Below are positions 19,693-49,244 of a DNA stretch of 64,000 nucleotides, piece after piece; the stretch's first letter is position 1, and each line of letters starts with the position of its first letter. The DNA is taken from the NCBI GenBank assembly GCA_934438075.1, contig CAKSBF010000006.1, positions 46,010 to 110,009 of the forward strand. Direction: 5' to 3'. The position numbers and the translations under genes are program-made. The notes under the pieces are model-generated. The model did not search any database. It saw only the letters and a program-made list of their open reading frames with translations, and was not told where the DNA came from. Origin of the DNA: an uncultured Clostridia bacterium (GTDB lineage Bacteria > Bacillota > Clostridia > UBA1381 > UBA9506).

Positions 19693-19710
19693 AGTAAGCC
19701 TCCTATATTT

Positions 19711-27901: not shown

Positions 27902-27936
27902 CTAATTCATATCCTTTCTATTTGTTGCACAATTGT

Positions 27937-31260: not shown

Positions 31261-31273
31261 TTTTCTCCCCCGT

Positions 31274-32233: not shown

Positions 32234-32251
32234 AGTATCCCCTTCCAGTTA

Positions 32252-33808
32252 TTATCTATTATTGAACCTTTCAAGAGCTGACTGTTTAATTTCTAGCGCC
32301 CTTTGCAGCCCTAAAGATTCTATAGTTTTTACATATTCTTCAAACTTTTCGATACTCTCTACACCCATAATAAACTTAGCAATCATTTCATCTTGGTATG
32401 TAGTAATGTCTGTCGTGATTGTTGCCAATTCGCTCGTCTCATCCTGGAGCACATAAACTAGCGGCATGGCATGTTCTATCGCATCAGTGTCGGGCCAGAT
32501 TTTGAGGGCTTCCTTTTGTTCCGGAAGCTGTGCATACTGCTCCATATACCGCTTATCCTGCACAAACGGTCCGGATTCATATGCCTTAAGATATTTTGCC
32601 ATAGCAGCTGTTATAGATAACCCATCGGGGTTATTCATAATCTCATCTGTGTATGTAGGATATCCATCGACCATTTTAAAGCTTTTTCCTTCAATTCCAA
32701 AATTATTAAGAATGTGCCCTTCTTCACCATATCCATAATCAAGCAGTTTAGCCGCAGTTTCATAAGATTTGCATTTCGTCGTAATGGCAGCACCAATTCC
32801 ATTGATAGGAAGTGAAACCTGCCCAAATTTTGGACGCTCTCCCTTTTTTAATGTAGGATATTTTGCCGGCACAAGCTTAAATCCATCTACTTTTCCTTTT
32901 GCAGCAGCAGAAATTCTTCCGATACCGCCACCAATCGTCAGCGGTGTAGCACCACAATTACCATTTAAAATTTTAGAATCCAGGGTTGTACTGTCGTTCG
33001 TCATAAAACTACGATCAATCAATCCCTCATTGTACCACTTATTAAATGTTTTTAAAAATTCGAGAAAACCTGGTTCCGTACCACCAAATTTAACAACATC
33101 TCCATCAACATAAAATGATTTTGTGGCTCCATACGCACCAGAAAAAAGACCCCAATCCAATACGTTAGACAAAGTGAAACTCAGCGGTGCAGTAGCATTT
33201 TTCTTTTCTTTAAATGCTTTTAAAACGTTATACCATTCATCAATTGTTTCCGGGATATCAAGTTTTAACTCCTCAAGCCAATCCCCGCGAAGAGCAATTC
33301 CTGCGGCTGTCAGCAAAGAATCATCACCCCGAATAAACGGGTAGCAAAAATATTGTCCCGAATCGGTCTTAAGATCAGATTTATATTGAGGATTCGCCTC
33401 AAGAAAATTTTTAAGGTTGGGAGAATCTTTCTCCATAATATCGTTTAAGTTTATAATATAACCATCATTTATTGCTTTTTCAGGTCCTCCCGGGAATTCA
33501 CTCCAATTACACTCGACAATATCCGGAAGTTCTTTTGATGCAATCATTAGGTTAAATTGTTCTTTTTCTTGTGAAACAGGAGGGTGGATGTAGTTAACCC
33601 GCACACCCGTCCTTTCCATTAACGTTTTACCATATTCCGATTCCCCCAATGTAGTTGTCGTAGAGCTTAAATTTGGGTCAATTCTCACCCAGTAAGTCAG
33701 TGTCTCTTCATTGTTTGCTTTTTTCGCCTTCTTTTCACCTGTACAACCGGATAAGATACTAACGGCAACAGTCACTGATAATAACCCGCATAACATCTTC
33801 TTCGTCAT
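32252..33808 (-). CDS. Extracellular solute-binding lipoprotein (LplA-like, large family-1 SBP)
   Basis: 518 aa with a lipobox ILSGC after the signal peptide. First gene of the SBP-permease-permease set. No ATPase gene in the locus. Confidence 0.85.
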   Translation of the reverse strand: MTKKMLCGLLSVTVAVSILSGCTGEKKAKKANNEETLTYWVRIDPNLSSTTTTLGESEYGKTLMERTGVRVNYIHPPVSQEKEQFNLMIASKELPDIVECNWSEFPGGPEKAINDGYIINLNDIMEKDSPNLKNFLEANPQYKSDLKTDSGQYFCYPFIRGDDSLLTAAGIALRGDWLEELKLDIPETIDEWYNVLKAFKEKKNATAPLSFTLSNVLDWGLFSGAYGATKSFYVDGDVVKFGGTEPGFLEFLKTFNKWYNEGLIDRSFMTNDSTTLDSKILNGNCGATPLTIGGGIGRISAAAKGKVDGFKLVPAKYPTLKKGERPKFGQVSLPINGIGAAITTKCKSYETAAKLLDYGYGEEGHILNNFGIEGKSFKMVDGYPTYTDEIMNNPDGLSITAAMAKYLKAYESGPFVQDKRYMEQYAQLPEQKEALKIWPDTDAIEHAMPLVYVLQDETSELATITTDITTYQDEMIAKFIMGVESIEKFEEYVKTIESLGLQRALEIKQSALERFNNR

Positions 33809-34892: not shown

Positions 34893-34983
34893 ATATAATT
34901 CAATCTTTATTTTTATTATATCACACTTCATAAGGCAATGCAAGAGGCAATCAACTTTTTTAGCTATCAAACGAAAACAAAAA

Positions 34984-35030
34984 TCAAAAAACGGGCCTAC
35001 AGCCGAAATAAAATTTCGCTGCAAGCCCGT
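34984..35030 (-). terminator. Rho-independent terminator closing the mdh...ferredoxin operon
   Basis: Minus strand reads ACGGGCTTGCAGCGAAAT-TTT-ATTTCGGCTGTAGGCCCGT followed by TTTTTTGATTTTTG. Confidence 0.75.
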
Positions 35031-35036
35031 TTGTCT

Positions 35037-35276
35037 CTAAATTTTTCCTAAAACATTTTCCTCAAAAAAAGTATTTACCCCATCAGTACTTACCGAATGG
35101 AGCACGCCATCTGCCTCCACACATACGCCCTGCTGACACTTTCCCATGCAAAAAGTTCCTGCAAGTTCAATTTTATCGCTCAGACCATGTGCACAAATAA
35201 GCTGCTGAAGCTGCTCCACAACTTGCCGAGACCCTTTAATATGGCAAGATGAGCCAATACAAACATTAATTTTCAT
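35037..35276 (-). CDS. Thioredoxin-like [2Fe-2S] ferredoxin
   Basis: 79 aa with four Cys arranged CIGSSC ... CMGKC, as in NuoE-type or small [2Fe-2S] ferredoxin domains. Confidence 0.7.
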   Translation of the reverse strand: MKINVCIGSSCHIKGSRQVVEQLQQLICAHGLSDKIELAGTFCMGKCQQGVCVEADGVLHSVSTDGVNTFFEENVLGKI

Positions 35277-35294
35277 AAAAAGTCCCTTTCCGAT

Positions 35295-35618
35295 TTAAAG
35301 ACTCATCGCCGCTGCATCAGCCGCTCGGTCAAGCTTTTTATTTCTGAAATATAAACTGATATCTGTTGCAATTTCGATAAAGTTCAAGACATAAAAGAAA
35401 AAGCTAAGATAGAATATAAAACCGGAGCTTCCGCCACTTACCTGAATAATTTTCCTGATAATACCAAAGGCATAGCCTATCAGCAAAAATACCTCAAAGA
35501 AAAGGCTCTTTCCCTTTGCCGTACGCGACACGATAGATTTGTGAATTGAAATCGGCCAGGAGAGTCCGAAGCAAAATATTGTTAAAGCTTCCAATAAATC
35601 TGTAATCATCTTATTCAA
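35295..35618 (-). CDS. Small 3-TM membrane protein (PQ-loop/SemiSWEET-like size and topology, family unverified)
   Basis: 107 aa with three hydrophobic helices. No motif I can assign with certainty. Confidence 0.5.
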   Translation of the reverse strand: MNKMITDLLEALTIFCFGLSWPISIHKSIVSRTAKGKSLFFEVFLLIGYAFGIIRKIIQVSGGSSGFIFYLSFFFYVLNFIEIATDISLYFRNKKLDRAADAAAMSL

Positions 35619-35640
35619 CCCTTTATCTTATTATTTTATG

Positions 35641-37236
35641 TTATTTTCTTCTGTAATCAGGCAACAGCTTAGGCGATACAGCCTCTGTCTCTATCCCCGC
35701 TGCCTCACGTTCTGCATCAAACTGCGCAATATGTGCAAGCGTCAGTTTGCCGACGGTAACGCCCTTGGCACAAGCTGAAGCATTTTGTCCGGCATTTCTG
35801 CCAAATACAATAATATCCAACAAAGAATTCCCCATCAAGCGATTACGACCGTGGATTCCTCCGACCGCTTCACCTGCTACGAAAAGATTTTCTACATTAG
35901 TTGTCATGCCATTGACATCGATATCTAAACCACCATTTTGATAATGCAAAGTAGGATACACCAAAATTGGTTCTTTACGAATATCTATGCCATAACTTCC
36001 AAACATGCGCATCATGGCAGGAATCCGTTTTTCAATTGTCCCTTCACCGCCGATGGCCTCAATCATCGGAGTATCCAGCCAAACCGCTTCACCGCTGCCC
36101 GTTGCGACACCTTCGCCGCGGTCGGAACACTCTCGGATAATGGATGCCGCCGCCACGTCACGGGTTTCCAGCGGATGCATAAATACTTTTCCATCACGGT
36201 TAACCAGTTTGGCACCCAAGGAGCGAACCTTTTCTGTTACGAGTGCACCAAATATCTGTTGCGGAAATGCCGCACCCGTCGGGTGATACTGAAGTGTTTC
36301 CGCATATAAAAGCTTTGCACCCACTCGATAACCCAATACCAGGCCATCTGCCGTAGCACCATAGTGGTTGGAAGTTGGGAATCCCTGATAGTGCATACGA
36401 CCTGCACCGCCCGTTGCAATAATCACCGTCTTGGCGCGCGCAACCATCAGCTCATGCGTTTCCATATTCATTAAAACCGCACCGGCCGCCCTGCCGTTTT
36501 CATCTAAAATCAGCTCGATTGCTGAAGTAAAATCTACCACAGGAATCTTACGGTTTAATACCTCATCACGCAGAGTACGCATGATTTCAGCGCCGGAATA
36601 GTCCTTTGCCGCATGCATACGCTTGCGGGAGGTTCCTCCGCCATGCGTGGTAATCATGGTGCCGTCCGCTTCCTTATCAAACTCCACACCCAAATCATTC
36701 AACCACTGAATCGCCTCCGGTGCATCGCAGACAAGTTTTGCCAAAAGCTCGCGTTTTGCCGCATAATGCCCACCGCCAAAGGCGTCTACAAAATGGATTG
36801 CAGGCGAATCATTTGGTTTGTCCGCTGCCTGAATACCGCCCTCCGCCATCATTGTATTGGCATCACCCATACGCAATTTCGTAACAATCATGGTTTTGGC
36901 ACCGGCCTTATCCGCCTCAATCGCAGCAGAAGTACCCGCTCCGCCGCCGCCGATGATCAGCACATCTACGTCATATTTCACATCATCAAGATTTACATCA
37001 GAGGCAGAAATGCGGCTGTGTGCCTGCAGCAACTCACAAAGCTCGTGCGGCACCTCTTCCCCTTTATTCGGTCCTATCTTTAAAACAGAAAACTCACTTT
37101 TCTTATAATCCGGATGGTAAGCTTTCAGCAAATTCTCTTTTTCCTGCGCTGTCATACGTGCCGGCTCATAAGCAATGTTTGCCTCTCGCGCCGCTTCTAC
37201 CTTTTTCAGCGACTCTTCAAATTCCTTTGCGTACAT
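35641..37236 (-). CDS. Soluble fumarate-reductase-like flavoprotein (Sdh/Frd/NadB superfamily, TfrA-like)
   Basis: 531 aa with the FAD fold DVLIIGGGGAGTSAA and substrate-site motifs YHPTG, TEKVR, HYQNGG and IHGRNRLMGNSL. Asn replaces the covalent-FAD His (GDANTMMAEGG). Confidence 0.75.
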   Translation of the reverse strand: MYAKEFEESLKKVEAAREANIAYEPARMTAQEKENLLKAYHPDYKKSEFSVLKIGPNKGEEVPHELCELLQAHSRISASDVNLDDVKYDVDVLIIGGGGAGTSAAIEADKAGAKTMIVTKLRMGDANTMMAEGGIQAADKPNDSPAIHFVDAFGGGHYAAKRELLAKLVCDAPEAIQWLNDLGVEFDKEADGTMITTHGGGTSRKRMHAAKDYSGAEIMRTLRDEVLNRKIPVVDFTSAIELILDENGRAAGAVLMNMETHELMVARAKTVIIATGGAGRMHYQGFPTSNHYGATADGLVLGYRVGAKLLYAETLQYHPTGAAFPQQIFGALVTEKVRSLGAKLVNRDGKVFMHPLETRDVAAASIIRECSDRGEGVATGSGEAVWLDTPMIEAIGGEGTIEKRIPAMMRMFGSYGIDIRKEPILVYPTLHYQNGGLDIDVNGMTTNVENLFVAGEAVGGIHGRNRLMGNSLLDIIVFGRNAGQNASACAKGVTVGKLTLAHIAQFDAEREAAGIETEAVSPKLLPDYRRK

Positions 37237-37247
37237 GTTATCCCTCC

Positions 37248-37922
37248 TTACTTCTCAATTTCCCGGTTGTTATAAAGCTCTTTCAATTCCTCAATCGGTT
37301 TGCCCATCAGACCTTCAATCAGCTCTGTGAAAGTGCCGTCTTTAATTTCCTGTACACGGTTTGCCAAATGCTCCGACTTCGGCGCCAAATATTTTCCGTT
37401 CAGCCTTCTCGCAAGCATTGCAACCTGCGGATGAGAAATACCGGCAGGACAGCGCGAGGAGCAAACGCCGCACATTACGCAGTCAAAGGATTCTTCCGCA
37501 CACTTCTCAAACTCGCCGCGCTGCGCATAAGCAATATACTGCATTACATTTAAACTCTGCGTACAGCTTTTCGTACAGGCATTGCAACCAACGCAGGCGT
37601 AAATTTCAGGATAAAGCTGCATCATAATCTGTTCGGTTGGCTTCACCGTCTCAATATCATAAACCTGCTTCACAAGAGGAAAAAACGGAAGCGTTGCGAC
37701 ATACATATCATTTTCAACCTTTGTCTGGCAAGCAAGACAAGTTTTCAGCTCTCTGTCACCTTTAATGCGGTAAATGGTCGCACATGCGCCGCAAAAACCA
37801 TTACGGCAGCCACAGCCGCGAACCAGTTGATAACCCGCATATTCCATAGCGCGCATAATCGTCAGATTATCGGGAACACTGTACTGCTTGCCGAACAGGT
37901 AAACATTAACCATATTTTCCAT
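37248..37922 (-). CDS. SdhB/FrdB-like iron-sulfur protein
   Basis: [2Fe-2S] signature CRNGFCGAC...C plus CVGCNACTKSC and CVMCGVCSSRCP. Start set to the ATG at 37922 (AAGGAG 9 nt upstream); the track ORF starts at 37952. Confidence 0.75.
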   Translation of the reverse strand: MENMVNVYLFGKQYSVPDNLTIMRAMEYAGYQLVRGCGCRNGFCGACATIYRIKGDRELKTCLACQTKVENDMYVATLPFFPLVKQVYDIETVKPTEQIMMQLYPEIYACVGCNACTKSCTQSLNVMQYIAYAQRGEFEKCAEESFDCVMCGVCSSRCPAGISHPQVAMLARRLNGKYLAPKSEHLANRVQEIKDGTFTELIEGLMGKPIEELKELYNNREIEK

Positions 37923-38031
37923 ATTCATATTCTCCTTATAACAAGATTTCATCGAAAACTTCTGCGCAGCAAAAGTCTCCTGTCAATAGCATTTCAACCT
38001 CACACCAAAAGGGGATATCTCAGCAAGGTTA

Positions 38032-38865
38032 TTAATATTCATCAGGAAGCTCATCAATCTCATCACAGCGGAACACAGGACCGTCTTTGCAGACATATTT
38101 AGAACCGATATTGCACCGGCCGCATTTTCCGATTCCGCACTTCATGCGAAGCTCCATTGTTGTATATACCTGTGTTTTATCAAACCCAAGCTCTATCAAG
38201 CCTGCAAGCGTAAACTTGATCATAATCGGCGGACCGCAAAGAATAGCAATCTTATCAGTTGAAAAACCAAGTTCCTTCACGTAGTTGGGAACAAATCCCA
38301 CGTGGCCATCCCATTCCGGCTGCTCGCGGTCAATTGTCAGATAAACGTTAACCCCCGCATCCTTTGACCACTCCTCAATAATTTCCCGATAATCCACCAA
38401 ATCCTGCATACTGCGTGAGCCATACACAATATCAATTTTTCCGTAGCGGTCGCGATAGTGGCGGCAGTAATTAATCACCGACCGAAGCGGTGCAAGACCG
38501 ATACCCCCGGCAATAAACAACATATCATGACCTGCAAACTCCGTATCCACCGGAAAGGCATTGCCATAAGGTCCGCGAATAGTAATCTGCTGACCGACCT
38601 CCATAGAATGAAGCCATTCGGTCACACAACCGCATTTTTTAATCGAAAACTCCATAAATTCTGTATTGGTCGGAGAGGAGGTAATGGAAAACATTGCCTC
38701 GCCAACACCCGGTATGGAAAGCATGGCACACTGCCCCGGCTTATGCTCAAACGCTTTTTTACCGTCCGGCGTTACCACGCGGAACGTTTTGACATCCGGT
38801 GTATCAATGCGAATGTCGGTAACCACACCCACAACAGGTATCAACGGTTCTTTCATATCAACCAT
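38032..38865 (-). CDS. flxA: FAD/NAD(P)H-binding [2Fe-2S] oxidoreductase (FlxA / AsrB / PyrK-like)
   Basis: Ferredoxin-reductase-type fold (AMFSITSSP, MLFIAGGIGLAPLRS) and a C-terminal CGIGKCGRCNIG...C cluster. Its start overlaps the flxB stop by 8 nt. Confidence 0.7.
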   Translation of the reverse strand: MVDMKEPLIPVVGVVTDIRIDTPDVKTFRVVTPDGKKAFEHKPGQCAMLSIPGVGEAMFSITSSPTNTEFMEFSIKKCGCVTEWLHSMEVGQQITIRGPYGNAFPVDTEFAGHDMLFIAGGIGLAPLRSVINYCRHYRDRYGKIDIVYGSRSMQDLVDYREIIEEWSKDAGVNVYLTIDREQPEWDGHVGFVPNYVKELGFSTDKIAILCGPPIMIKFTLAGLIELGFDKTQVYTTMELRMKCGIGKCGRCNIGSKYVCKDGPVFRCDEIDELPDEY

Positions 38866-39883
38866 TTTCACACCCTCCTAACTTTTTCATAACCTTTACG
38901 ATATTCATCTGAATCGGGCATTTTGCCATGCAGCGGCCGCAGCCGACACAGGAAAACAGTCCGTCGTTATTGGTAGGATAATACACCAGCTTGTGCATAA
39001 AACGCTGACGAAAGCGTTCCATTTGCGTTAAGCGTGGCTGCCCTGCAGACATTTTTGTGAATTCGGAATACATACAGGAATCCCAGCAGCGAAAACGTTT
39101 CACTCCGTGTCCTGTATTAAAATCCTTAATATCATAACACTGACAAGTCGGGCAGATAAATGTGCAGGTTCCGCATCCTAAACAAGACTCGGAAAGTTCT
39201 TTCCATTCCGGTGCATCAAAAAATTCTGAGGTCTTTCCATCTCCAAAAGCGTCCGCCGAAAGATTTGATAACGGAAGCTTTTTCAAGCGCTGTGCAATCA
39301 GCTTCTGCTGTGCTTCAGCCGCCGCACTGTTCGCCTCTTCCGTTACATCTGTCAGGCTCTCCAATAGTTTTGCACCCTTATCCGTTTTTGCCTCCATATA
39401 AAGCGCATCTTCTGTCTGCAAACAGACAACATCACCCTCAGGACTCGATGCGTCTATGCCAAAGGTACCGCAAAAACAAGTCTCCACAGGCTTATTGCAG
39501 GCAAGAGACATAACAACCCCATGCTCTCTTCGGTTTTTATAATAGCTATCCACAGGTTCTGCCAAGAACACACGGTCCAGTATCTCAAAGCTTTTCACGT
39601 CACAGGCACGAACGCCAAATAAAACAAAGTTCTCACATTCCTTGCGTGTATCAATAATCTCAATATTTTTTCCTTCCATCTGAAAATCCATCAAATTTTC
39701 CGTCTGGGGGAAGAAGAAATCCTTTGCACTTCTTACTGTATTCAGATTTTTAGAAAGCGTTTTTCCGCTTTCCCACTTTTCAAATTTTGCACCCGCTGCC
39801 GTATCTATCGGCAAGTACAGTGTGCTTGCAACAGAAATGGCTGCAAACAATTTATCAAGCTCATTAAGCGAAATCTTACGCAT
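38858..39883 (-). CDS. flxB: 4Fe-4S dicluster protein (FlxB / AsrA-like)
   Basis: Contains CLGCGTCTFICPTCQC and CVGCGRCMAKCP. Start moved to the ATG at 39883 (AGAGGTGA RBS), overlapping the flxC stop by 8 nt. Confidence 0.65.
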   Translation of the reverse strand: MRKISLNELDKLFAAISVASTLYLPIDTAAGAKFEKWESGKTLSKNLNTVRSAKDFFFPQTENLMDFQMEGKNIEIIDTRKECENFVLFGVRACDVKSFEILDRVFLAEPVDSYYKNRREHGVVMSLACNKPVETCFCGTFGIDASSPEGDVVCLQTEDALYMEAKTDKGAKLLESLTDVTEEANSAAAEAQQKLIAQRLKKLPLSNLSADAFGDGKTSEFFDAPEWKELSESCLGCGTCTFICPTCQCYDIKDFNTGHGVKRFRCWDSCMYSEFTKMSAGQPRLTQMERFRQRFMHKLVYYPTNNDGLFSCVGCGRCMAKCPIQMNIVKVMKKLGGCENG

Positions 39884-40868
39884 TTTCGTCACCTCTTTCC
39901 ACTGCCTCACCGGGTTCAATATCCTCCGTAGTGTAGTTTACAATCGGTGCACGGCTGCCGACCTCAGCCCCAGCCTGATACTCTCCGTAAAAGGTATCAA
40001 TATCCTTAATAAATTTGCGGTTTAAAAGATGCAGCGGAATGTGCTGCGGACAAACGCGCGAACATTCGCCGCAATCCGTACAACGCCCTACCACGTGAAA
40101 AGCACGGATAATATGAAACATTTTTTCCTCAAAAGAGTTTGCCGCCGCCTTATTTTCAACACCGGAATTTGGATTGTCAAACACACATTTTTCGCAGGTA
40201 CACGCCGGACAAACATCCCGACAGGCATTGCAGCGAATACAGCGCGAAAGCTCATTTTGCCAAAAAGCAAAGCGCTCATCGGGTGTCATTTTCTCCAATT
40301 TTTCCACTTCGTCAAACCTTGCGGAATCAAGTATCTCGCCGTCAGCACCCAAAAGCTCATCATAGACAACATGTTTTTTTGATTTACAATTGATGCATCT
40401 GTCCGGCAAGAGGGATGCACGTTCAAGCGCCAGAGTGCCATCATACAGAGTATCAACTGCAATTTTTTCGCCCTCTTCGCGAACGGCGGCAATGCCATCA
40501 GCACAATCTCTTATCTTTCCGGCGTCCAGCATACCGCTGCAGGGAACCCCTACTGCATAAACCTTTTCACGGTCAAAGCGATGCTCTGTGAGCAGCTGAT
40601 TAAAGCTGTAGGTATCGCACGGCTTTAAAAAAACAAGTACCTTGCTTTCACTTTTTGCTGTTTCCTTTATCAGATATTTTGAAAAGTTTGCACCACAGAA
40701 ATCATTCCAGACAAAGGACTTTTCCAGTTCTTCCACCGTACGAAAAACAGCCGGCGTCACGTCATAATCAAATTCTCCCGCTTTCCAGCCGAGAACACGG
40801 TCTGCCGCACCATTGCTAAGCAGCTCGCAAGCTTTTGAAACGAGAATTTCGCGTTTTATTTCTTGCAT
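39876..40868 (-). CDS. flxC: 4Fe-4S dicluster protein (FlxC-like)
   Basis: 330 aa with CIRCNACRDVCPACTC and CTDCGECSRVCP. Overlaps the flxD stop by 13 nt. Confidence 0.6.
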   Translation of the reverse strand: MQEIKREILVSKACELLSNGAADRVLGWKAGEFDYDVTPAVFRTVEELEKSFVWNDFCGANFSKYLIKETAKSESKVLVFLKPCDTYSFNQLLTEHRFDREKVYAVGVPCSGMLDAGKIRDCADGIAAVREEGEKIAVDTLYDGTLALERASLLPDRCINCKSKKHVVYDELLGADGEILDSARFDEVEKLEKMTPDERFAFWQNELSRCIRCNACRDVCPACTCEKCVFDNPNSGVENKAAANSFEEKMFHIIRAFHVVGRCTDCGECSRVCPQHIPLHLLNRKFIKDIDTFYGEYQAGAEVGSRAPIVNYTTEDIEPGEAVERGDENA

Positions 40869-41290
40869 CGCAAATCCTCCAATCTCTTATTTTCACCCAA
40901 CGCGGCAACCTTTTGTGCAAAATCGTTCATGGTTGCAGCAAACTTTGCTCCCTCAGCCGCACTGACCCATTCCACACGGGTACGTTCCTTTTCAATACCA
41001 AGGTAATCCAACATAGAAAACAGCAGCGCCATGCGGCGACGTGTATAATAATTTCCGGAGGTATAATGACAGTCACCCGGATGACAGCCGCAGATAATCA
41101 CTCCATCCGCACCGCGCTGAAACGCACGAAGAATAAACATCGGATTAACTCTGCACGAACAGGGCACGCGAATAATCTTTACATCTGCAGGATAATTTAA
41201 ACGGTTATTCCCTGCCAAATCAGCGCCGGCATAAGAACACCAATTACAGCAGAAAGCCACGATAAGCGGTTTATATTCTTTTATTTGCAT
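40856..41290 (-). CDS. flxD: MvhD-like hydrogenase iron-sulfur subunit (FlxD)
   Basis: Contains IVAFCCNWCSYAGADLAG...RVPCSCRVNP...CHPGDCHY, typical of MvhD. Start at the ATG at 41290 (GGAGG 10 nt upstream), overlapping the hdrA stop. Confidence 0.8.
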   Translation of the reverse strand: MQIKEYKPLIVAFCCNWCSYAGADLAGNNRLNYPADVKIIRVPCSCRVNPMFILRAFQRGADGVIICGCHPGDCHYTSGNYYTRRRMALLFSMLDYLGIEKERTRVEWVSAAEGAKFAATMNDFAQKVAALGENKRLEDLRCKK

Positions 41291-43275
41291 ATTGCATCTA
41301 CCTCCGCCATAATTTGTTTGCTTGTAAAGCCGCGTAAATCCATTGCGCCGGACATACAGGCCACTGTACAAGCGCCGCAGCCCTGACATACCGCTTCATT
41401 TACCACAGCAATACGGCGAAGCTTTGTCGTTCTGTCCGGCATTCTGAATTCTTTTTCCTGATAGCTGATCGCGCCGTAAGGACATACTTTTTCACAGGTG
41501 GAACAGCCGTTACACATCATTTCGTCCGAATGGGCAATACATGGGTTGCCTGTTAATTTATCCTTACAAAGCAGGCCAATCACCTTAGATGCAGCAGCAC
41601 CCGCCTGCGATACCGTTTCCGGAATATCCTTCGGACCCTGGCAGGCACCGGAAAGGAATACCCCGGCTGTCGGGCTTTCCACAGGTCGAAGTTTGGGATG
41701 TGCCTCGGTGAAAAAGTCGTTGGTATCCATACTGGCTGTCAACATGGTGGCCAAAGGTCTTGCAGATTTATCCGGTTCAATTGCAGCGGCAAGCACAACC
41801 AAATCAGCATCGATATGAAGCTGCTTACCGTCCAGTAAATCAGACGCCTGAACCTTCAGCGTGCCATTTTCCGGTGATACCTTTCCGACCATCCCCTTGA
41901 TATAATGCACGCCATATTCTTCTACTGCGCGGCGATAAAATTCATCAAAATTCTTACCCGGAGTACGAACATCAATATAAAAGACGTAAACATCAGTATC
42001 CGGATATTTATCACGAATCAGCATAGCATGCTTTGCCGTATACATACAGCAGATTTTTGAGCAATATTCCTTTCCCTTCTGCGCACAAGCTTCACAACGC
42101 GAGCCAACGCACTGCACAAAAACAATGGTGTGCGGATGCTCTCCGTCGGACGGACGAAGCAGCGTTCCACCCGTAGGTCCTGCCGCATTCATCAGACGCT
42201 CCAGTTCCAGCGAAGTAATAACATCCTTCGACTGCGAGTAAGCAAATTCATCAAACGGCTCCATAGAAATCGGATTAAATCCAGTCGCCGCAACAATCGC
42301 GCCATATTTTTCCTCAATAAATTCATCTTTGGCCTGATAATCAATCGCGCCGGCGCTGCACACCTTGGAGCAAACCCCGCATTTTCCCGTTTTCAGCATC
42401 ATACAATGATTTGGGTCAATAGTTGCCACCTTTGGCACTGCCTGCGCAAACGGAATATAAATTGCGCGGCGGTTATCCATCCCCAGGTTAAATTCATTCG
42501 GAATCTTCTTCTGCGGGCACTTTTCCGTACACAGTCCGCAGCCGGTGCAAATATCCTCTTTTACATATCTTGCCTTTTTCTTAATGGTTACATCAAAGTT
42601 GCCGACAAAACCTTTAATATCTGTTACCTCAGAATAAGAGAAAATACGAATTTTCTCATTTTGTGCCACATCCACCATTTTCGGCGTAAGGATACAGGCA
42701 GCACAATCCAAAGTCGGAAAGGTTTTATCCAGTTGAGCCATTTTTCCGCCGATAGTCGGTTTCGTCTCCACAATATCCACCGGAAATCCTGCGTCCGCAA
42801 TATCCAGCGCTGTCTGGATACCGGCAATCCCCCCGCCGATGACCAGTGCACGCTTGGTAACAGGACTTTCGCCCGGCGTAAGCGGTGCATTCAAATTTAC
42901 TTTTGCAACGGCTGCTTTGGCGAGAATAATCGCCTTTTCCGTACCAACCGGCATTTCCTTGTGCACCCAGGAGCATTGCTCCCGAATATTCGCAATTTCC
43001 ACCATATAAGGATTCAGCCCCGCAGCAGCAGCCGTTTTACGGAAGGTTGCCTCATGCATACGCGGCGAACAGGAACAGACCACTATTCCTGTCAGTTTGT
43101 GCTCTGCAACTGCCTCTTTAATCATATTTTGCCCTGCTTGAGAACACATATATTGATAATCGGTGGAGAATACAACACCCGGCTCATTTTTTAACGCTTC
43201 CGCCACCGCTGCCACATCTACCGTTCCGGCGATGTTGGTACCGCAGTGACAGACAAAAACTCCAATTCTCTGCAT
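41281..43275 (-). CDS. hdrA: Heterodisulfide reductase subunit A-like flavoprotein
   Basis: 664 aa with an N-terminal Cys cluster VFVCHCGTNIAG, the FAD fold VIGGGIAGIQTALD, inserted ferredoxin domains (CTGCGLCTEKCP, CGVCSKVC) and C-terminal CNGCSTCEKVCP/CQGCGACTVAC. No in-frame stop. Confidence 0.9.
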   Translation of the reverse strand: MQRIGVFVCHCGTNIAGTVDVAAVAEALKNEPGVVFSTDYQYMCSQAGQNMIKEAVAEHKLTGIVVCSCSPRMHEATFRKTAAAAGLNPYMVEIANIREQCSWVHKEMPVGTEKAIILAKAAVAKVNLNAPLTPGESPVTKRALVIGGGIAGIQTALDIADAGFPVDIVETKPTIGGKMAQLDKTFPTLDCAACILTPKMVDVAQNEKIRIFSYSEVTDIKGFVGNFDVTIKKKARYVKEDICTGCGLCTEKCPQKKIPNEFNLGMDNRRAIYIPFAQAVPKVATIDPNHCMMLKTGKCGVCSKVCSAGAIDYQAKDEFIEEKYGAIVAATGFNPISMEPFDEFAYSQSKDVITSLELERLMNAAGPTGGTLLRPSDGEHPHTIVFVQCVGSRCEACAQKGKEYCSKICCMYTAKHAMLIRDKYPDTDVYVFYIDVRTPGKNFDEFYRRAVEEYGVHYIKGMVGKVSPENGTLKVQASDLLDGKQLHIDADLVVLAAAIEPDKSARPLATMLTASMDTNDFFTEAHPKLRPVESPTAGVFLSGACQGPKDIPETVSQAGAAASKVIGLLCKDKLTGNPCIAHSDEMMCNGCSTCEKVCPYGAISYQEKEFRMPDRTTKLRRIAVVNEAVCQGCGACTVACMSGAMDLRGFTSKQIMAEVDAICK

Positions 43276-43292
43276 GGATTGCTTCTCCTTTC

Positions 43293-43685
43293 TTATTTCG
43301 AATACTTTCGCATAGCGCTCATAAGCGCCTGCTGCGGCAGTTCATCATCAATCAGCGCCGGAATATCATTTGCTGTCAAATGATTTGCGCCTTTTTGGCG
43401 AATCACGCAAAGTCTCAGCGCCTCCACCAGTTTTGCCGGCTCGACTCCTCTCGGACAACGATCCACGCACGCAAAACAGGAAAGACATTTGTATATAGAG
43501 TCGGACTTCATCAGTGCTTCCAGTTCACCGTTTTCCACCATGTAAACAAACTGATGCGGATGATATTCCATAGCATCATAGGAGGGACAAGTGCCCGAAC
43601 ATTTTCCGCAGCGCATACACTTGCGCGGATTTACGCCGCTCATGCGAAGAATCTGTTCCTTTTGCCGTTCATTTTTATTCAGCAT
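43293..43685 (-). CDS. hdrC: Heterodisulfide reductase subunit C-like
   Basis: 130 aa with CMRCGKCSGTCP and CLSCFACVDRCP. Confidence 0.85.
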   Translation of the reverse strand: MLNKNERQKEQILRMSGVNPRKCMRCGKCSGTCPSYDAMEYHPHQFVYMVENGELEALMKSDSIYKCLSCFACVDRCPRGVEPAKLVEALRLCVIRQKGANHLTANDIPALIDDELPQQALMSAMRKYSK

Positions 43686-44481
43686 GTGAATCCTCCTTTA
43701 CGCCAAATGCCTCAGCCAGTAGCTCCGTAAAATATACCACAGGCACGGAACTTTCGCCTCTTTCTAAATTATATTTGCACAGCGGACAGGCTGTCACAAT
43801 CATTTCTGCTCCAGCATTTGCTGCGCTGTCGCTGACTGCATTTGATTTTTTCTTTGCCAGCGCCGCGTCCTCCAACACTGCATAACCTCCGCAGCATTCG
43901 TTTCTCTGCGGATAAATAACAGGTTCAGCGCCGAGCGCTTCTATCAGTCTCTCCATTATACGCGGATTTTCCACATCATCAAAATTCATTACCTTGCCGG
44001 GTCGCAGAAGCATGCAGCCATAATACGCCGCAATTTTCCTGCCTGCAAGCGGCTTGACAACCGCTTCACGGATTTTATCAAAACCAACTTTCTGCTCCAG
44101 CAGTTCCAGATAGTGATAAACCTCCGTCTCGCCATGGTACGGCTCCGACGGTTCCTTGTCCTGCTGCATGTAAAGATTTACCTTCGCAGCAAAATTCTCC
44201 TCTGTCTGCATAGCATGATTGGTTTGTTTTATTACATTATGACAGGCTGAACATACCGTCACCAACGGCTGTCCGCAGGCTTTCGCAGCGGTAAGCGCAC
44301 GAACGCTTGAAAGCTTGGAGGCTATCTCGTCCTTTGCGCTGACAAAAACACCGCCGCAGCATTGCCAATTTTCAATTTCACAAAGCTCAACGCCGAGAAT
44401 CTCTGCACATTTACGCGCATAATAATCAAGCTTTTTTGCCTTGGTACGGAGGGTGCAGCCTGGAAAATAACTAACCTTCAT
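43675..44481 (-). CDS. hdrB: Heterodisulfide reductase subunit B-like (two CCG domains)
   Basis: 268 aa with two CCG signatures (WQCCGG...CSACHN and NECCGG...CPLCKYN). Confidence 0.85.
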   Translation of the reverse strand: MKVSYFPGCTLRTKAKKLDYYARKCAEILGVELCEIENWQCCGGVFVSAKDEIASKLSSVRALTAAKACGQPLVTVCSACHNVIKQTNHAMQTEENFAAKVNLYMQQDKEPSEPYHGETEVYHYLELLEQKVGFDKIREAVVKPLAGRKIAAYYGCMLLRPGKVMNFDDVENPRIMERLIEALGAEPVIYPQRNECCGGYAVLEDAALAKKKSNAVSDSAANAGAEMIVTACPLCKYNLERGESSVPVVYFTELLAEAFGVKEDSHAE

Positions 44482-44498
44482 TGTTTACCTCCCATACA

Positions 44499-45875
44499 TT
44501 AAACCATTTGTTCGGGGTGAAATACCTCATCAAATTTTTCCTCTGTTAAAAAGCCAAGTGCAACGCAGGCTTCTTTCAAGGATATATTATCTTTATATGC
44601 TTTCTTCGCTGTTTTTGCAGCGTTTTCATACCCGATATACGGATTCAGCGCTGTAACCAGCATGAGAGAATTGTGCAAGTTATGATACATTTTTTCTTTA
44701 TTCGCCGTAATGCCGACCGCACAGTTATTATTAAAAGAAACAATCGCTTCTGCCAGCAAGCGCGCCGACTGCAGGAAGTTATAAGCAGCCACAGGCATGA
44801 ACACATTTAATTCAAAATTCCCCTGAGACGCTGCCATACCGACTGCAACATCATTTCCCATAACCTGGACCGCAACCATGGTAACTGCCTCACACTGTGT
44901 CGGATTGACCTTGCCCGGCATAATAGAAGAACCCGGTTCATTCTCCGGAATATGAATCTCACCGAGGCCGTCACGCGGTCCGGATGCCAGCCAGCGAACA
45001 TCGTTAGCAATCTTCATCATGTCACAGGCTGTTGCTTTTATCGCCCCGTGCGCAAAGACAAGTTCGTCCTTCGAGGTGAGCGCATGAAATTTATTTTCCG
45101 CCGTAACAAAAGGCTTGCCGGTTAGCTCAGCTACCTTTGCCGCAACCAGCTCCGAAAAACCGGCAGGTGCATTCAACCCTGTGCCAACGGCTGTTCCGCC
45201 AAGCGCCAACTCATGCAACGGTTTTACAGCCAGCTTTAAAAGTTCTGCATCTCTTTCCAGACTGGAACGCCAACCGGAAATCTCCTGACTGAATTTAATC
45301 GGCGTTGCATCCTGCAAATGCGTACGTCCCGATTTGACAATTCCTTCATTCTCCTGCTCCAAACGCCGGAGGGTTGCAATCAGCATTTCAATTGCCGGAA
45401 GCAGTTTATCCTCAATAGCAACCACGGCCGAAATATGCATCGCCGTCGGGAAGGTATCATTGGAAGACTGGCTCATATTAATGTCATCATTCGGATGACA
45501 AAGTTTCTTATCAGCAAGCTGATTAGCACGGTTTGCAATTACTTCATTTGCATTCATGTTCGACTGCGTACCGGAGCCGGTTTGCCATACTACAAGCGGG
45601 AAATGTTCATTCAATTTTCCGGAAATAACCTCATCACAAGCAGCAGAAATCGCAGCAAGTTTCTCTGCCGTCATTTTCTCGGGTTTCAGCTCTGCATTGG
45701 CAAGAGCCGCCGCTTTTTTCAAGATTCCGAAAGCGTGCGTTATCTCCCTTGGCATCGTTTCAATATCTACGCCGATTTTAAAATTTTCACGGCTTCTTTG
45801 TGTCTGCGCTGCCCAAAGACGGTCCGCGCGGACTTTCATCTCACCCATGGAATCATGTTCTGTACGGTATTCCAT
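44499..45875 (-). CDS. fumC: Class II fumarate hydratase
   Basis: 458 aa with the signature GSSIMPGKVNPTQ. Confidence 0.95.
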   Translation of the reverse strand: MEYRTEHDSMGEMKVRADRLWAAQTQRSRENFKIGVDIETMPREITHAFGILKKAAALANAELKPEKMTAEKLAAISAACDEVISGKLNEHFPLVVWQTGSGTQSNMNANEVIANRANQLADKKLCHPNDDINMSQSSNDTFPTAMHISAVVAIEDKLLPAIEMLIATLRRLEQENEGIVKSGRTHLQDATPIKFSQEISGWRSSLERDAELLKLAVKPLHELALGGTAVGTGLNAPAGFSELVAAKVAELTGKPFVTAENKFHALTSKDELVFAHGAIKATACDMMKIANDVRWLASGPRDGLGEIHIPENEPGSSIMPGKVNPTQCEAVTMVAVQVMGNDVAVGMAASQGNFELNVFMPVAAYNFLQSARLLAEAIVSFNNNCAVGITANKEKMYHNLHNSLMLVTALNPYIGYENAAKTAKKAYKDNISLKEACVALGFLTEEKFDEVFHPEQMV

Positions 45876-45892
45876 TTCATTTCCACCTTCCC

Positions 45893-46837
45893 TTATATTT
45901 CAAGACTATTAATAACATCCTTCAGTGTATCTGCGCTATGGCGCAGTTTAGCAATTTCATCATCAGTCAGCGGAACATTGACCTTGCCGCGCACGCCATT
46001 ATGACCAATCATGTTCAGCGTGCTGAGACATACGTCCTTAATGCCATACTCACCGTGCATCATAGCCGAAACGGTCATCGTAGTGTCAATGCCGCTCAAA
46101 ATGCATTTGCATATGTGACAGACAGAAACCGAGACAGCATAAAAGGTCGCACCCTTGCGCGCAATAACCCTTCCGCCCGATTTTTTCACATATTGTTCAA
46201 TTTCCTCGAAATTTAATTCTGGACTCTCCAGTCCCGGTGTAATAATTAATTTACGGCATTCGTTGATCGGAACATTAGAAATGTTGGCAACAGACCACGG
46301 AATAAATGAAGAATCTCCATGTTCTCCAAATACATAAGCATGGACATTGCTTTGATTAATATTATAATACTCCGCCAATCTTGCACGCAGGCGCGATGTG
46401 TCCAAAATAGTGCCCGAACCGATAATACGATTTTCCGGAATGCCCGATAATTTGATGAAGGTGTAGGTCAGAATATCAACCGGATTACTGACGATGATAT
46501 ACACGGCATCCGGAGCATATTTGGTGATTTCGGGAATAATCGTTTTGGTGATATTCACGTTTGTCTGCGCAAGCTCCAGTCTGGTTTGACCCGCTTTTCT
46601 GGCGATACCCGAGGTCAGGATAACGATGTCAGAATTAACGGCATCGCGATAATCACCTGCATAAACAGAACATGCCCCGCAAAACGGAGTACCCTGTCTG
46701 ATATCAAGCGCTTCGCCGAGCGCCTTCTCATTGTTGATATCAATCATAACAATTTCTGACGCTATGCCCATCACAGTCAGTGTGTAAGCAATCGTGGAGC
46801 CGACGCTGCCGGTTCCGATAATGGATATTTTGTTCAT
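45893..46837 (-). CDS. mdh: LDH-family 2-hydroxyacid dehydrogenase, predicted malate dehydrogenase
   Basis: 314 aa with GTGSVGS NAD fold, catalytic GEHGDS and DTSRLR. The specificity loop SGIARKAGQTR carries Arg where lactate dehydrogenases have Gln. Confidence 0.75.
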   Translation of the reverse strand: MNKISIIGTGSVGSTIAYTLTVMGIASEIVMIDINNEKALGEALDIRQGTPFCGACSVYAGDYRDAVNSDIVILTSGIARKAGQTRLELAQTNVNITKTIIPEITKYAPDAVYIIVSNPVDILTYTFIKLSGIPENRIIGSGTILDTSRLRARLAEYYNINQSNVHAYVFGEHGDSSFIPWSVANISNVPINECRKLIITPGLESPELNFEEIEQYVKKSGGRVIARKGATFYAVSVSVCHICKCILSGIDTTMTVSAMMHGEYGIKDVCLSTLNMIGHNGVRGKVNVPLTDDEIAKLRHSADTLKDVINSLEI

Positions 46838-47057
46838 AATGCACCTCTCATTTCAACATTGTCTGCTATATTGTATCATCCTTCGAGTAAAATAGGAATT
46901 GTCAAATCTGTATAGCCATAAGATAATTGACGATATAAGTCCTCATAATGTTTCCGCGTTGCAGAAATCATCATAAATGACTGTGTTATAAAAACACCCT
47001 TCCCCGTCAAGCATATCGAAACCCCATTATTACTCTATTTTATTATAGCTTAATGCT

Positions 47058-47086
47058 ATTATACTACTTTGTTAAAAAAAAATCAA
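47058..47086 (-). promoter_or_regulatory. Candidate sigma-70 promoter of the mdh operon
   Basis: Minus strand reads TTGATT, a 17-nt spacer, then TATAAT. This implies a leader of roughly 210 nt before the mdh ATG. Confidence 0.4.
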
Positions 47087-47154: not shown

Positions 47155-47240
47155 AATAAAAACAAAGCGCGCCAATAAAGTGCTCGTCATCCAGCGTTTT
47201 ATTAGCGCACAAAAGAGGCTGCAGCAAAAGCCACAGCCTC
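47155..47240 (-). terminator. Tandem Rho-independent terminator hairpins after pckA
   Basis: First hairpin GAGGCTGTGGC-TTTT-GCTGCAGCCTC plus TTTTGTG. Second hairpin is an 11-bp stem GCGCTAATAAA/TTTATTGGCGC followed by GCTTTGTTTTTATTTT. Confidence 0.7.
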
Positions 47241-47275: not shown

Positions 47276-48883
47276 TTATTTACGCGGACCGGCAGAAACC
47301 AAAGCCTTACCTGCCGCATTTCCCTCATACTTTGCAAAGTTTTTGATGAATCTGTCTGCCAAATCCTTTGCCTTTGCCTCCCATTCGGAAGCGTCTGCAT
47401 AAGTATCACGCGGATCCAAAATGCCCGCATCAACACCCGGCAGTTCTGTCGGAACCTCGAAATCAAAATACGGAATCTTTTTAGTCGGTGCATTTGCAAT
47501 GTCACCGTTTAAGATAGCATCAATAATTCCACGCGTGTCACGGATGGAAATACGCTTTCCAGTACCGTTCCAGCCCGTGTTAACCAAATAAGCCTTTGCA
47601 CCGCTCTTCTGCATCTTTTTCACAAGCTCTTCTGCATATTTAGTCGGGTGCAGTTCCAAAAATGCCTGACCAAAGCAAGCTGAGAAGGTCGGCGTTGGTT
47701 CAGTAATGCCGCGCTCGGTACCTGCAAGTTTTGCTGTAAAACCGGACAGGAAATAGTACTGAGTTTGTTCCGGAGTCAAAATAGATACCGGAGGAAGTAC
47801 GCCGAAAGCATCGGCAGACAAGAAGATAACGTTCTTCGCATCAGGCGCTGCCGAAACCGGACGAACAATATTCTTAATATGATTAATCGGGTAAGATACA
47901 CGTGTATTTTCTGTGACGCTCTTATCGTCAAAATCAATTTTACCGTTTTCGTCAAGCGTTACATTTTCAAGCAGTGCATCACGCTTAATAGCATTATAAA
48001 TATCAGGCTCAGACTCTTTGTCCAGGTTAATAACCTTTGCATAGCAGCCACCCTCAAAGTTAAATACACCGTTGTCATCCCAACCGTGTTCATCATCGCC
48101 GATGAGCAAACGCTTCGGATCTGTAGACAGAGTGGTTTTACCCGTTCCGGAAAGGCCAAAGAAAATAGCCGTATTTTTGCCGTCCATATCAGTATTTGCA
48201 GAACAATGCATAGAAGCAATGCCCTTCAGCGGCAGGTAGTAGTTCATCATGGAGAACATACCTTTTTTCATTTCTCCGCCATACCAAGTATTTACAATAA
48301 CCTGCTCACGGCTGGTGATGTTAAACATAACCGCTGTCTCAGAATTAAGTCCCAGCTCTTTATAATTTTCAACCTTTGCCTTGGAAGCGTTATACACAAC
48401 AAAATCAGGCTCAAAGTTTTCCAGTTCTTCTGCGGTCGGCTGAATAAACATATTGGTAACAAAATGTGCCTGCCAAGCAACCTCAACGATAAAGCGGATT
48501 GCCATACGGGTATCCTTATTGGTTCCGCAGAACGCATCAACAACAAACAATCTCTTGTTAGACAGTTCTTTCAGAGCAATATCTTTTACTGCATTCCATG
48601 CCTTTTCAGATGCAGGATGGTTATCATTTTTATATTCATCCGAAGTCCACCATACAGTATCTTTTGAGTTTTCATCCTCCACAATAAATTTGTCCTTAGG
48701 AGAACGTCCTGTATAAACGCCTGTCATGACGTTAACAGCACCCAGTTCACTTACCTGACCTTTTTCAAAACCCTCCAGACCCGGTTTGGTTTCTTCTTCA
48801 AACAGCATGTCGTAAGACGGATTGTGCACAATCTCCGTTGTTCCGGCAATGCCATACTTTGTTAAATCGATTTTACTCATCAC
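47276..48883 (-). CDS. pckA: Phosphoenolpyruvate carboxykinase (ATP)
   Basis: 535 aa with the kinase-1a loop [13 protein letters not shown]. Length and N-terminus are typical of ATP-dependent PckA. Confidence 0.95.
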
Positions 48884-49244
48884 ACACTACCTCTTTTCTT
48901 TACTTTTACCTCATTGCAACCCAATATTAAAAAATAATGAATCAGCAATTTTCGATTTGTATTCTATTATAATTAATTTTTCTGCAAAAATCAATAGATT
49001 TCACATTAATTTCTTAAAATGTTAAAAATTTGACTATATTTTATAGAGATATCCAAAAATAAAAATTCTCTTCATTTTCTCAATTTTCGCCTTTTAGTAT
49101 CATTTGTTGTTTTATTGCGGAATATGTATCAAACTTTTCACCACAGATTAATAATATAAAAGCTTTAACTAAAAGGAACTTTTTTCCTTGCCTACCGTCT
49201 ATAGCAATGAGGACCTCAAAAAATAAAAAAGAAGGATGATTAAA

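Follow-up and report, generated by a model that had tools for sequence, protein, structure and literature searches.

A gut Clostridia succinate operon and the soluble fumarate reductase that it is predicted to encode

Introduction

How do electrons from NADH reach fumarate in a bacterium whose fumarate reductase genes come without a membrane anchor and stand instead behind a complete set of flx and hdr genes? The question is raised by a 64,000-nucleotide (nt) stretch of DNA from an uncultured gut Clostridia bacterium (GenBank assembly GCA_934438075.1, contig CAKSBF010000006.1, positions 46,010 to 110,009), called the window here. On its minus strand, from 46837 down to 35037, run 13 co-directional genes in the order mdh-fumC-hdrBCA-flxDCBA-frdBA, ending with two small genes, one for a membrane protein and one for a [2Fe-2S] ferredoxin. 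On balance, we favor the view that this is a fermentative "succinate operon" for a cytoplasmic NADH:fumarate reductase, wired via HdrBC and probably co-reducing ferredoxin.

The core idea is not new. A preliminary description of the locus, made from the letters of the sequence, implied that the arrangement was a novelty, a claim we cannot uphold. The same operon and the same hypothesis were already published in 2019/2020 for Pseudoclostridium (Hungateiclostridium) thermosuccinogenes (PMC7282089), and a related cluster, from tubeworm symbionts (2019, 2024) and Thioflavicoccus, is on record (PMC6315080; PMC11636981; PMC13147460). The window operon is a further member, from a gut organism, of this published predicted type. 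What we add, by sequence comparison, is its near-invariant synteny in at least 80 species-level genomes, the apparent modularity of FrdBA, which pairs with alternative donors, and a predicted dicarboxylate-type exporter that usually follows frdA.

The catalytic pair

Is the flavoprotein a fumarate reductase at all? Six of its residues (H318, E335, R338, R359, H431, and R466) align with the dicarboxylate and proton-shuttle positions of Escherichia coli FrdA and are invariant in family alignments to 39% identity. The preliminary description had read a His-Arg-His-Arg dicarboxylate site from the motifs YHPTG, TEKVR, HYQNGG, and HGRNRLMGNSL, and the alignment bears it out; these motifs, and CRNGFCGAC of FrdB, are all found in the translations of the open reading frames (ORFs). 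The AlphaFold2 (AF2) model of FrdA has a predicted local distance difference test score (pLDDT) of 94.7, and its top fold match is E. coli FrdA (1kf6_A), with flavocytochrome c3 fumarate reductases, Sdh, and NadB as further matches (template modeling score ∼0.7). Where E. coli FrdA has His44, the residue that holds flavin adenine dinucleotide (FAD) covalently, the window protein has Asn127. Asn at this position is invariant in the family alignment and is found in nearly all scorable N-extended members of our tree. Enzymes of the FrdA fold with noncovalent FAD reduce fumarate and do not oxidize succinate efficiently.

FrdA has its peculiarities. At the N terminus, it is extended by ∼88 residues that are peculiar to the family and include HPDY and GPNKGE motifs. 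The C-terminal domain is lacking, the AF2 model having only two short helices after residue 470. In a search of 1.8 billion representatives, this architecture formed a small, distinct group. The top NCBIfam family is TfrA (NF004900), at 326.7 bits against a cutoff of 718 and with model positions 5 to 409 of 546 matched; the Sdh/Frd subfamily scores 276 bits, and NadB (TIGR00551) 272.2 against a cutoff of 452.75. A crude neighbor-joining tree sets the FrdA family apart from a short family of ∼400 residues, from NadB, and from an Sdh/Frd/TfrA group (His- or Gly-bearing, with the C-terminal domain present). Beyond the family, the closest full-length neighbors resemble TfrA, one of them scoring above the TfrA cutoff. 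The nearest curated relatives are TfrA and Frd/Sdh, not AprA or urocanate reductase, in keeping with the assignment first given to the flavoprotein.

FrdB combines a [2Fe-2S] motif of the SdhB type with two CxxCxxCxxxCP motifs, both complete. Its 12 cysteines are all invariant, even in a natural fusion protein of 38% identity. At the sequence level, FrdB matches SdhB and the N terminus of TfrB weakly, and Pfam and NCBIfam find no CCG domain in it. The AF2 model of FrdB, built on a shallow alignment, has a pLDDT of 49.5. This natural fusion (P0123, L083 5250–7433) is a 727-residue protein with FrdB at its N terminus, 54% identical to window FrdA, and it ties FrdB and FrdA together functionally; no hdr or flx genes lie within 5 kb upstream of its gene. 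Domain searches of the 13 operon products found no FrdC/D or Sdh_cyt anchor, in agreement with the preliminary description.

The Flx-Hdr module and the route to fumarate

Alongside the pair is the full, contiguous seven-gene FlxABCD–HdrABC domain set. HdrB matches methanogen HdrB structures over its full length (E = 1.6e-38), with both CCG motifs complete, and scores almost as well against SdhE of methylmenaquinol:fumarate reductase (153 bits) as against the HdrB model (158.8 bits). HdrA matches the structurally characterized, bifurcating HdrA 5odc_A over residues 3 to 661 (E = 1e-208). FlxD matches the C-terminal MvhD part of HdrA2, and HdrA and FlxD jointly cover the Methanosarcina HdrA2 model. 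TfrB, too, is matched in pieces, by FrdB (positions 19–94), HdrC (121–220), and HdrB (377–473), and the three together look like a split TfrB. Among the 13 operon genes, Pfam and NCBIfam found no DsrC, alcohol dehydrogenase, or thiol-carrier domains. Every domain assignment in the preliminary description was confirmed by these two databases.

The first enzyme of the operon is easily misread. It passes the NCBIfam equivalog cutoffs for L-lactate dehydrogenase (LDH), and annotation pipelines will therefore call it a lactate dehydrogenase. At the Gln102 specificity position, it has Arg (GIARKAGQTR), and this malate-type residue, already pointed out in the preliminary description, is invariant in 48 of 48 informative orthologues. 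The Q102R change is the one that turns LDH into malate dehydrogenase (MDH), and by its specificity residue, the window enzyme is a predicted LDH-clade malate dehydrogenase. It also keeps the fructose-bisphosphate-site residues Arg173 and His188. Genes for phosphoenolpyruvate (PEP) carboxykinase, of the ATP or the GTP type, adjoin several of the related loci.

Conservation and changing partners

We compared synteny by tblastn with all window proteins, using one genome per GTDB species, in the best 80 of at least 590 related stretches (73–92% identity). These 80 loci include Yeguia hominis NSJ-40, Acutalibacteraceae, Congzhengia, Avoscillospira, and Ruminococcus flavefaciens metagenome-assembled genomes (MAGs), and order was judged on loci with enough upstream DNA. 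In every such locus except L064, fumC-hdrBCA-flxDCBA-frdBA is found in the same order and on the same strand, and the majority of loci retain mdh as well. The seven Flx-Hdr subunits are 72 to 97% identical across the set, and FrdA forms more than 120 clusters at 87 to 93% identity in gut and rumen metagenomes. The preliminary description had proposed looking for frdBA next to flx-hdr in other genomes; among the best 80, the adjacency is near-invariant. L064 (a Congzhengia sp. MAG, 8079–11967) is the one locus where, despite ample DNA upstream, no flx-hdr genes lie near frdBA. There, a CitMHS-family transporter gene lies 5′ of frdB-frdA, and the small membrane protein is also present.

More distant relatives shed light on how the pair is fed. 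L082 (811–9771) has a 54%-identical FrdA, encoded at the end of a run of four (kor-like) oxoacid:ferredoxin oxidoreductase subunits and then hdrA-mvhD-hdrC-hdrB-frdB-frdA. No flxCBA follows mvhD; the contig ends ∼0.8 kb upstream, so flx genes could lie beyond. In distant relatives, hdrC-hdrB directly adjoin frdB-frdA. Marine Gammaproteobacteria (L084–L086, 9366–12891) have overlapping frdB, frdA, and nuoF-like (Complex1_51K/NADH_4Fe-4S) genes and no CCG protein, an operon from which a minimal soluble NADH:fumarate reductase is predicted, its FrdBA belonging to the same family. In Prochlorococcus sp. MIT 1201 (L087) and other lineages, the frdA-frdB pair stands alone. Judged by these neighborhoods, FrdBA appears to be a modular soluble acceptor unit that takes electrons from differing protein partners, and this pairing with different partners favors direct wiring from FeS cluster to FeS cluster over a diffusible thiol. 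Gene content, catalytic residues, conserved synteny, and the varied partners of FrdBA are the observations on which the rest of our argument draws.

Relation to known systems

The closest published counterpart is the succinate operon of P. thermosuccinogenes (CDQ83_RS03365–03315). It comprises genes for fumarate hydratase, seven Flx-Hdr subunits, two fumarate reductase subunits, and a hypothetical membrane protein suggested as the succinate transporter (PMC7282089). The paper, citing a 2019 preprint by Koendjbiharie and van Kranenburg, has NADH-driven fumarate reduction coupled to ferredoxin reduction as its proposal, and describes the operon as co-regulated and up ∼4-fold under CO2 limitation. 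Its authors also point to earlier published physiology, in which 85% H2 abolished succinate formation, as fitting ferredoxin-coupled fumarate reduction. By that published locus description, the number and order of fumarate hydratase, flx/hdr, frd, and membrane protein genes are the window's own. The window adds the LDH-clade mdh in front and the small [2Fe-2S] ferredoxin at the end, and its host, unlike P. thermosuccinogenes, is a mesophilic gut organism of the Oscillospirales type.

Tubeworm symbionts (Ca. Endoriftia and the Escarpia symbiont) and Thioflavicoccus mobilis have a reductive tricarboxylic acid cycle cluster, frdBA(tfrAB)-hdrCB-korDABC-hdrA-flxDCBA (PMC6315080; PMC11636981; PMC13147460). 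As in the window, a soluble two-subunit Frd is found by HdrBC, HdrA, and FlxABCD, and a single fumarate- and ferredoxin-reducing bifurcating complex has been proposed; thiol-mediated and direct-complex models have both been offered (PMC6315080 and supplement). The cluster is backed by co-expression, tfrAB excepted (PMC11636981), and has been reviewed (PMC13147460). It differs in serving autotrophic CO2 fixation in Gammaproteobacteria, with interspersed 2-oxoglutarate:ferredoxin oxidoreductase genes and another gene order, whereas the window version is fermentative and comes with mdh, fumC, and pckA.

The seven-gene domain set itself is that of Desulfovibrio vulgaris FlxABCD–HdrABC (Ramos et al. 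2015). In Desulfovibrio, Flx-Hdr is tied to an alcohol dehydrogenase, and its proposed high-potential acceptor is the DsrC disulfide (PMC6315080 supplement); in the window, the partner is FrdBA, and the operon has neither DsrC nor alcohol dehydrogenase. Methanothermobacter TfrAB (Heim et al. 1998) is another natural comparison. TfrA, like window FrdA, does without the covalent-FAD His. Differences are that window FrdA has an N-terminal extension and lacks the C-terminal domain, FrdB is not fused to a CCG domain (which is on HdrB), neither protein reaches the TfrA or TfrB cutoff, and in a bacterial host the use of coenzymes M and B is not expected.

Then there is the one characterized precedent, FrdABCDE of Hydrogenobacter thermophilus, purified as a soluble, five-subunit, NADH-dependent enzyme working irreversibly in the reductive direction (Miura 2008, cited from PMC13147460). 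The literature we searched mentions no other purified soluble multisubunit NADH:fumarate reductase from bacteria. In contrast to the window's set, the known enzyme has no HdrA, MvhD, or FlxABC and is encoded by genes dispersed in the genome; no bifurcation has been reported for it. Two extra subunits of the Hydrogenobacter enzyme are said to be HdrB/C-like. In type E SdhABEF and Wolinella SdhABE, a CCG subunit resembling HdrB partners SdhAB directly (compare the near-equal SdhE score of window HdrB), but those enzymes are membrane-associated and quinone-linked, whereas the window CCG protein belongs to a cytoplasmic HdrABC set. With the classical FrdABCD and SdhABCD, FrdA shares the dicarboxylate-site residues and not the covalent-FAD His or an encoded anchor. 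It differs from NadB in falling below the equivalog score and in having an FeS partner gene 11 nt upstream.

A proposed mechanism, and its rivals

The physical complex, the electron path, and bifurcation to ferredoxin are what we infer from all this. PckA, from the adjacent unit, would form oxaloacetate, which the LDH-clade malate dehydrogenase and class II fumarase would convert to fumarate. The reductase would be a soluble two-subunit enzyme without a quinol site, FrdA carrying noncovalent FAD and FrdB one [2Fe-2S] and two [4Fe-4S] clusters. NADH would enter at FlxA, and electrons would pass via FlxB, FlxC, and FlxD to the flavin of HdrA. From there, the high-potential electron would travel through HdrC and the noncubane clusters of HdrB to FrdB, the FAD of FrdA, and fumarate, while the low-potential electron would go to ferredoxin. 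Summed over the whole path, the proposed stoichiometry is 2 NADH + Fd(ox) + fumarate → 2 NAD+ + Fd(red) + succinate. FrdB, HdrC, HdrB, and FrdA would together amount to a thiol:fumarate reductase in "split" form, with the CCG protein serving for wiring or docking and not as a thiol oxidase, and succinate would leave through the transporter encoded after frdA. With potentials of −320 mV for NADH, +33 mV for fumarate, and ∼−450 mV for ferredoxin, such bifurcation is exergonic, as it is for Bcd-Etf. The preliminary description had placed the whole PEP-to-succinate branch in the operon. This goes a little too far, since pckA is a separate transcription unit; the operon itself covers the part from oxaloacetate to succinate.

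Several points weigh against this proposal. The presence of HdrA is the sole ground for bifurcation, and full-text literature searches found no purification or assay of any Flx-Hdr-Frd complex. The soluble Hydrogenobacter NADH–fumarate reductase works without reported bifurcation, and expression of Endoriftia tfrAB did not track the rest of its cluster (PMC11636981). L064, with frdBA but no flx-hdr, and other family members without Hdr entirely indicate that FrdBA has no strict need of Hdr.

What else might the operon do? Flx-Hdr could bifurcate to ferredoxin and to the disulfide of a small thiol or DsrC-like protein, with the thiol re-oxidized by Frd as in TfrAB, an alternative that the preliminary description had left standing and that we now consider unlikely. 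It draws on the two complete CCG motifs of HdrB, which in methanogen HdrB form the heterodisulfide site, and on TfrA being the closest curated family of FrdA. Of the two models put forward for the symbionts, it is also one (PMC6315080 supplementary Note 3; PMC11636981). But the CCG domain, the thiol-oxidizing site in TfrB, is what FrdB lacks, and neither a thiol carrier nor DsrC is encoded in the operon. FrdBA relatives are found with a NuoF-like subunit and no CCG protein, or on their own, which implies direct transfer from protein to protein, and a free carrier would not explain so strict a gene adjacency. The missing CCG domain, the piecewise TfrB match, hdrCB next to frdBA, the nuoF-like branch, and the fusion protein all argue for direct wiring over a thiol shuttle. 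If the wiring is direct, Flx-Hdr might still be no more than an NADH module and a wire, with ferredoxin left unreduced, along the lines of H. thermophilus. That an irreversible soluble multisubunit NADH–fumarate reductase has been characterized (Miura 2008, cited from PMC13147460) speaks for this, as does the gammaproteobacterial operon, in which FrdBA would be fed by a simple NADH module. We nevertheless doubt it: a complete HdrA with MvhD, and seven extra subunits so well conserved over 80 loci, would be costly for a mere wire; fermenters without a respiratory chain would waste ∼350 mV; and the inhibition of P. thermosuccinogenes succinate formation by H2 fits ferredoxin coupling.

The remaining alternatives touch the reaction itself. 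FrdBA might not be a fumarate reductase but an L-aspartate oxidase-like enzyme or some other enoate or dicarboxylate reductase, or it might work independently of Flx-Hdr, the adjacency being a convenience of co-regulation. FrdA does fall below every curated NCBIfam cutoff and sits in a distinct clade with its own extension and truncation, NadB shares the active-site residues of FrdA and likewise has Asn or Ser in place of the covalent His, and L064 and several distant members are without Hdr neighbors. We judge it improbable all the same, because the pair shares an operon with fumC and mdh beside pckA and has AAE-type or CitMHS dicarboxylate transporters alongside. An FeS partner of its own and a natural fusion set it apart from NadB, and P. 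thermosuccinogenes, with the same operon layout, produces succinate. Most improbable of all is reverse operation, in which succinate oxidation would be confurcated with reduced ferredoxin to NADH in an oxidative branch of the tricarboxylic acid cycle. Hdr-type complexes are reversible in principle, but efficient succinate oxidation needs covalent FAD, and here an invariant Asn replaces the His; pckA, the LDH-type MDH, and export-type AAE transporters also fit a reductive, fermentative branch.

Returning to the bifurcating reductase, we can put forward a bolder version of it, as a serious though tentative possibility. FlxABCD, HdrABC, and FrdBA may be hard-wired into a single cytoplasmic machine in which NADH electrons are split between ferredoxin and a C=C bond, the noncubane clusters of HdrB wiring to FrdB instead of reducing a disulfide. 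Among Hdr-type bifurcases, it would be the first whose high-potential acceptor is not a sulfur compound. In a large group of quinone-independent gut and rumen Oscillospirales, among them long-known succinate producers such as R. flavefaciens, fumarate may be reduced mainly by this route, which may also add an energy-conserving step (through Rnf or hydrogenase), with the hitherto unrecognized ∼105-residue membrane family described below replacing the AAE succinate exporter.

Operon boundaries and transcription signals

The gene set of the window was taken from ORF lists, and independent gene calls on the identical public contig (L001) gave the same starts (Table 1). The same-strand run of the preliminary description holds, though not its count of 12: there are 13 genes, and it named the products of 11 and left out the two small genes at the end. 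The 12 junctions are just as it gave them, at +17, +17, −11, +17, −10, −13, −8, −8, +109, +11, +22, and +18 nt. The widest, between flxA and frdB, had been named as a possible real operon boundary, and as a conserved boundary it can be rejected. Across 75 loci, the flxA–frdB spacer has a median of 17 nt, is mostly 10 to 35 nt, and reaches at least 100 nt in just four, which makes the window's 109 nt an outlier and not a conserved boundary. An internal terminator in the gap was considered and discarded too, the fold (z = −1.96) having no U-run and no terminator-like hairpin.

Upstream, pckA is its own unit, as first described, with its own promoter-like site and its own terminator. The promoter-like sites of pckA and of the mdh operon have identical hexamers and spacing. 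The TTGATT-17-TATAAT site that the preliminary description took as the operon promoter is present, but it is kept in only one of 11 aligned relatives (L004); the conserved part is the proximal block, whose extended −10 TGATACAAT recurs across relatives in the alignment of upstream regions. The proximal block of the closest relatives contains a 26-nt element that resembles an operator, TATATCGATAAATACAATACCGATAT, and has inverted arms (ATATCG/CGATAT). It lies ∼100 to 190 nt 5′ of mdh in 8 of 47 loci (L002, L003, L005, L007, L014, L018, L035, and L071), and the extended −10 promoter comes after it. A search of 2.9 Mb of strand sequence, or both strands of ∼1.4 Mb of DNA, gave nine matches to the 26-nt consensus, eight of them upstream of mdh. 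The window's copy has nine mismatches. A Rex operator at the distal promoter was rejected: the site overlaps a weak match to TTGTTAANNNNTTAACAA with three mismatches, and the window has nine such matches against 8.5 expected by chance. No riboswitch or other known RNA was found in the 220-nt leader, Rfam at its gathering threshold giving two tRNAs only. The strong terminator said to close the operon is there, seen by folding and not picked up by the pattern scan. A tRNA-Val gene comes after the operon.

Table 1. Features of the succinate operon and its upstream unit in the window
Feature	Position	Strand	Evidence or remark
pckA promoter-like site	48966–48994	−	pattern scan
pckA, ATP-dependent PEP carboxykinase	47276–48883	−	PF01293 E = 5.5e-206; separate upstream unit
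pckA intrinsic terminator	47215–47240	−	11-pair stem then T-run; −20.8 kcal/mol, z = −4.7
Distal promoter-like site TTGATT-17-TATAAT	47058–47086	−	pattern scan; ∼220 nt 5′ of mdh ATG
Proximal leader block	46870–46937	−	upstream-region alignment; diverged copy of 26-nt element (46937–46912) and extended −10 TGATACAAT (46878–46870)
mdh, predicted LDH-clade malate dehydrogenase	45893–46837	−	PF00056 and PF02866 (Ldh_1_N/C)
fumC, class II fumarate hydratase	44499–45875	−	Lyase_1 and FumaraseC_C; TIGR00979 698.8 bits vs cutoff 664.75
hdrB	43675–44481	−	PF02754, two matched stretches (two CCG domains)
hdrC, 2x[4Fe-4S]	43293–43685	−	Fer4 dicluster families; top NCBIfam TIGR03290 HdrC
hdrA, candidate bifurcating flavoprotein	41281–43275	−	NF040770 HdrA2, 797 bits
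flxD, MvhD-like [2Fe-2S] protein	40856–41290	−	PF02662 FlpD E = 1.3e-55
flxC, poly-FeS protein	39876–40868	−	Fer4 dicluster families
flxB, FeS protein like sulfhydrogenase beta/AsrA	38858–39883	−	PF17179; NF040829 ShyB 180 bits
flxA, NAD(P)H/FAD/[2Fe-2S] entry subunit	38032–38865	−	FAD_binding_6, NAD_binding_1, DHODB_Fe-S_bind
frdB-like FeS subunit, 224 residues	37248–37922	−	Fer2, Fer2_4, Fer4 families ([2Fe-2S] and 2x4Fe-4S)
frdA-like flavoprotein, 531 residues	35641–37236	−	PF00890 (FAD_binding_2), single domain
107-residue hydrophobic membrane protein, apparently ∼3 transmembrane segments	35295–35618	−	no family match
79-residue thioredoxin-like [2Fe-2S] ferredoxin, NuoE C-terminus-like	35037–35276	−	PF01257 E = 8e-06
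Operon-closing intrinsic terminator	∼34981–35032	−	hairpin −28.3 kcal/mol, z = −6.7, then U-run UUUUUUGAUUUUU

The small genes and the neighborhood

The 107-residue membrane protein, marked by the motifs FCFGLSWPISIRKS and LYFRN, has no match in Pfam, NCBIfam, or the PDB. We found no support for it as a SemiSWEET/PQ-loop protein or an FrdC/D-like anchor, the sole match being to DUF2304, below threshold. Its position says more. The slot right after frdA holds an AAE-family (Asp-Al_Ex) transporter gene in 51 of 79 loci, a gene for a membrane protein of ∼105 residues in 19 (the window among them, the relative loci being L002–L081), and neither in nine. The two are mutually exclusive over the 79 loci. 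The AAE family includes the Corynebacterium succinate exporter. Occupation of the same slot, together with mutual exclusion, suggests that the ∼105-residue protein is a functional substitute for the AAE transporter: a candidate succinate exporter and possibly a new small family. The 79-residue ferredoxin has Cys spacing C-x4-C-x31-C-x3-C and weak NCBIfam matches to ferredoxin and NuoE. It is found at this position in few relatives and within 1 to 4 kb in several others.

Elsewhere in the window, 52865–53986 is a lone gene for the beta subunit of a Na+-transporting oxaloacetate decarboxylase (OAD_beta, E = 8.9e-154), with no alpha or gamma subunits among the scanned neighboring ORFs of at least 150 residues; it may have to do with oxaloacetate or methylmalonyl-CoA decarboxylation close to the succinate pathway. 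Nearby, 54143–56269 encodes a 708-residue fusion of IspH/LytB with four S1 RNA-binding domains, and acyltransferase and cytidylate kinase genes come after it. Directly downstream of the operon is a large pectin/rhamnogalacturonan utilization locus (14102–33808), with GH88, a 1531-residue pectate lyase (CBM and Big_2), an SLH-domain protein, a GH106-like rhamnosidase, an esterase, an AraC-type regulator, and an ATP-binding cassette sugar transporter.

What it would mean

The operon has cultured carriers, namely P. thermosuccinogenes, Y. hominis NSJ-40, and R. flavefaciens. If the proposal holds, many strictly fermentative gut and rumen Clostridia would conserve energy in reducing fumarate, without quinones or a membrane-bound reductase. 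The ∼350 mV drop from NADH to fumarate would yield reduced ferredoxin, for Rnf-dependent ion pumping or for H2 formation, and Hdr-type electron bifurcation would extend to a carbon acceptor. Succinate is both a precursor of propionate and a host signaling metabolite. The redox and ATP balances of the gut and rumen bacteria that produce it would change, and their output of succinate and of H2 would be linked.

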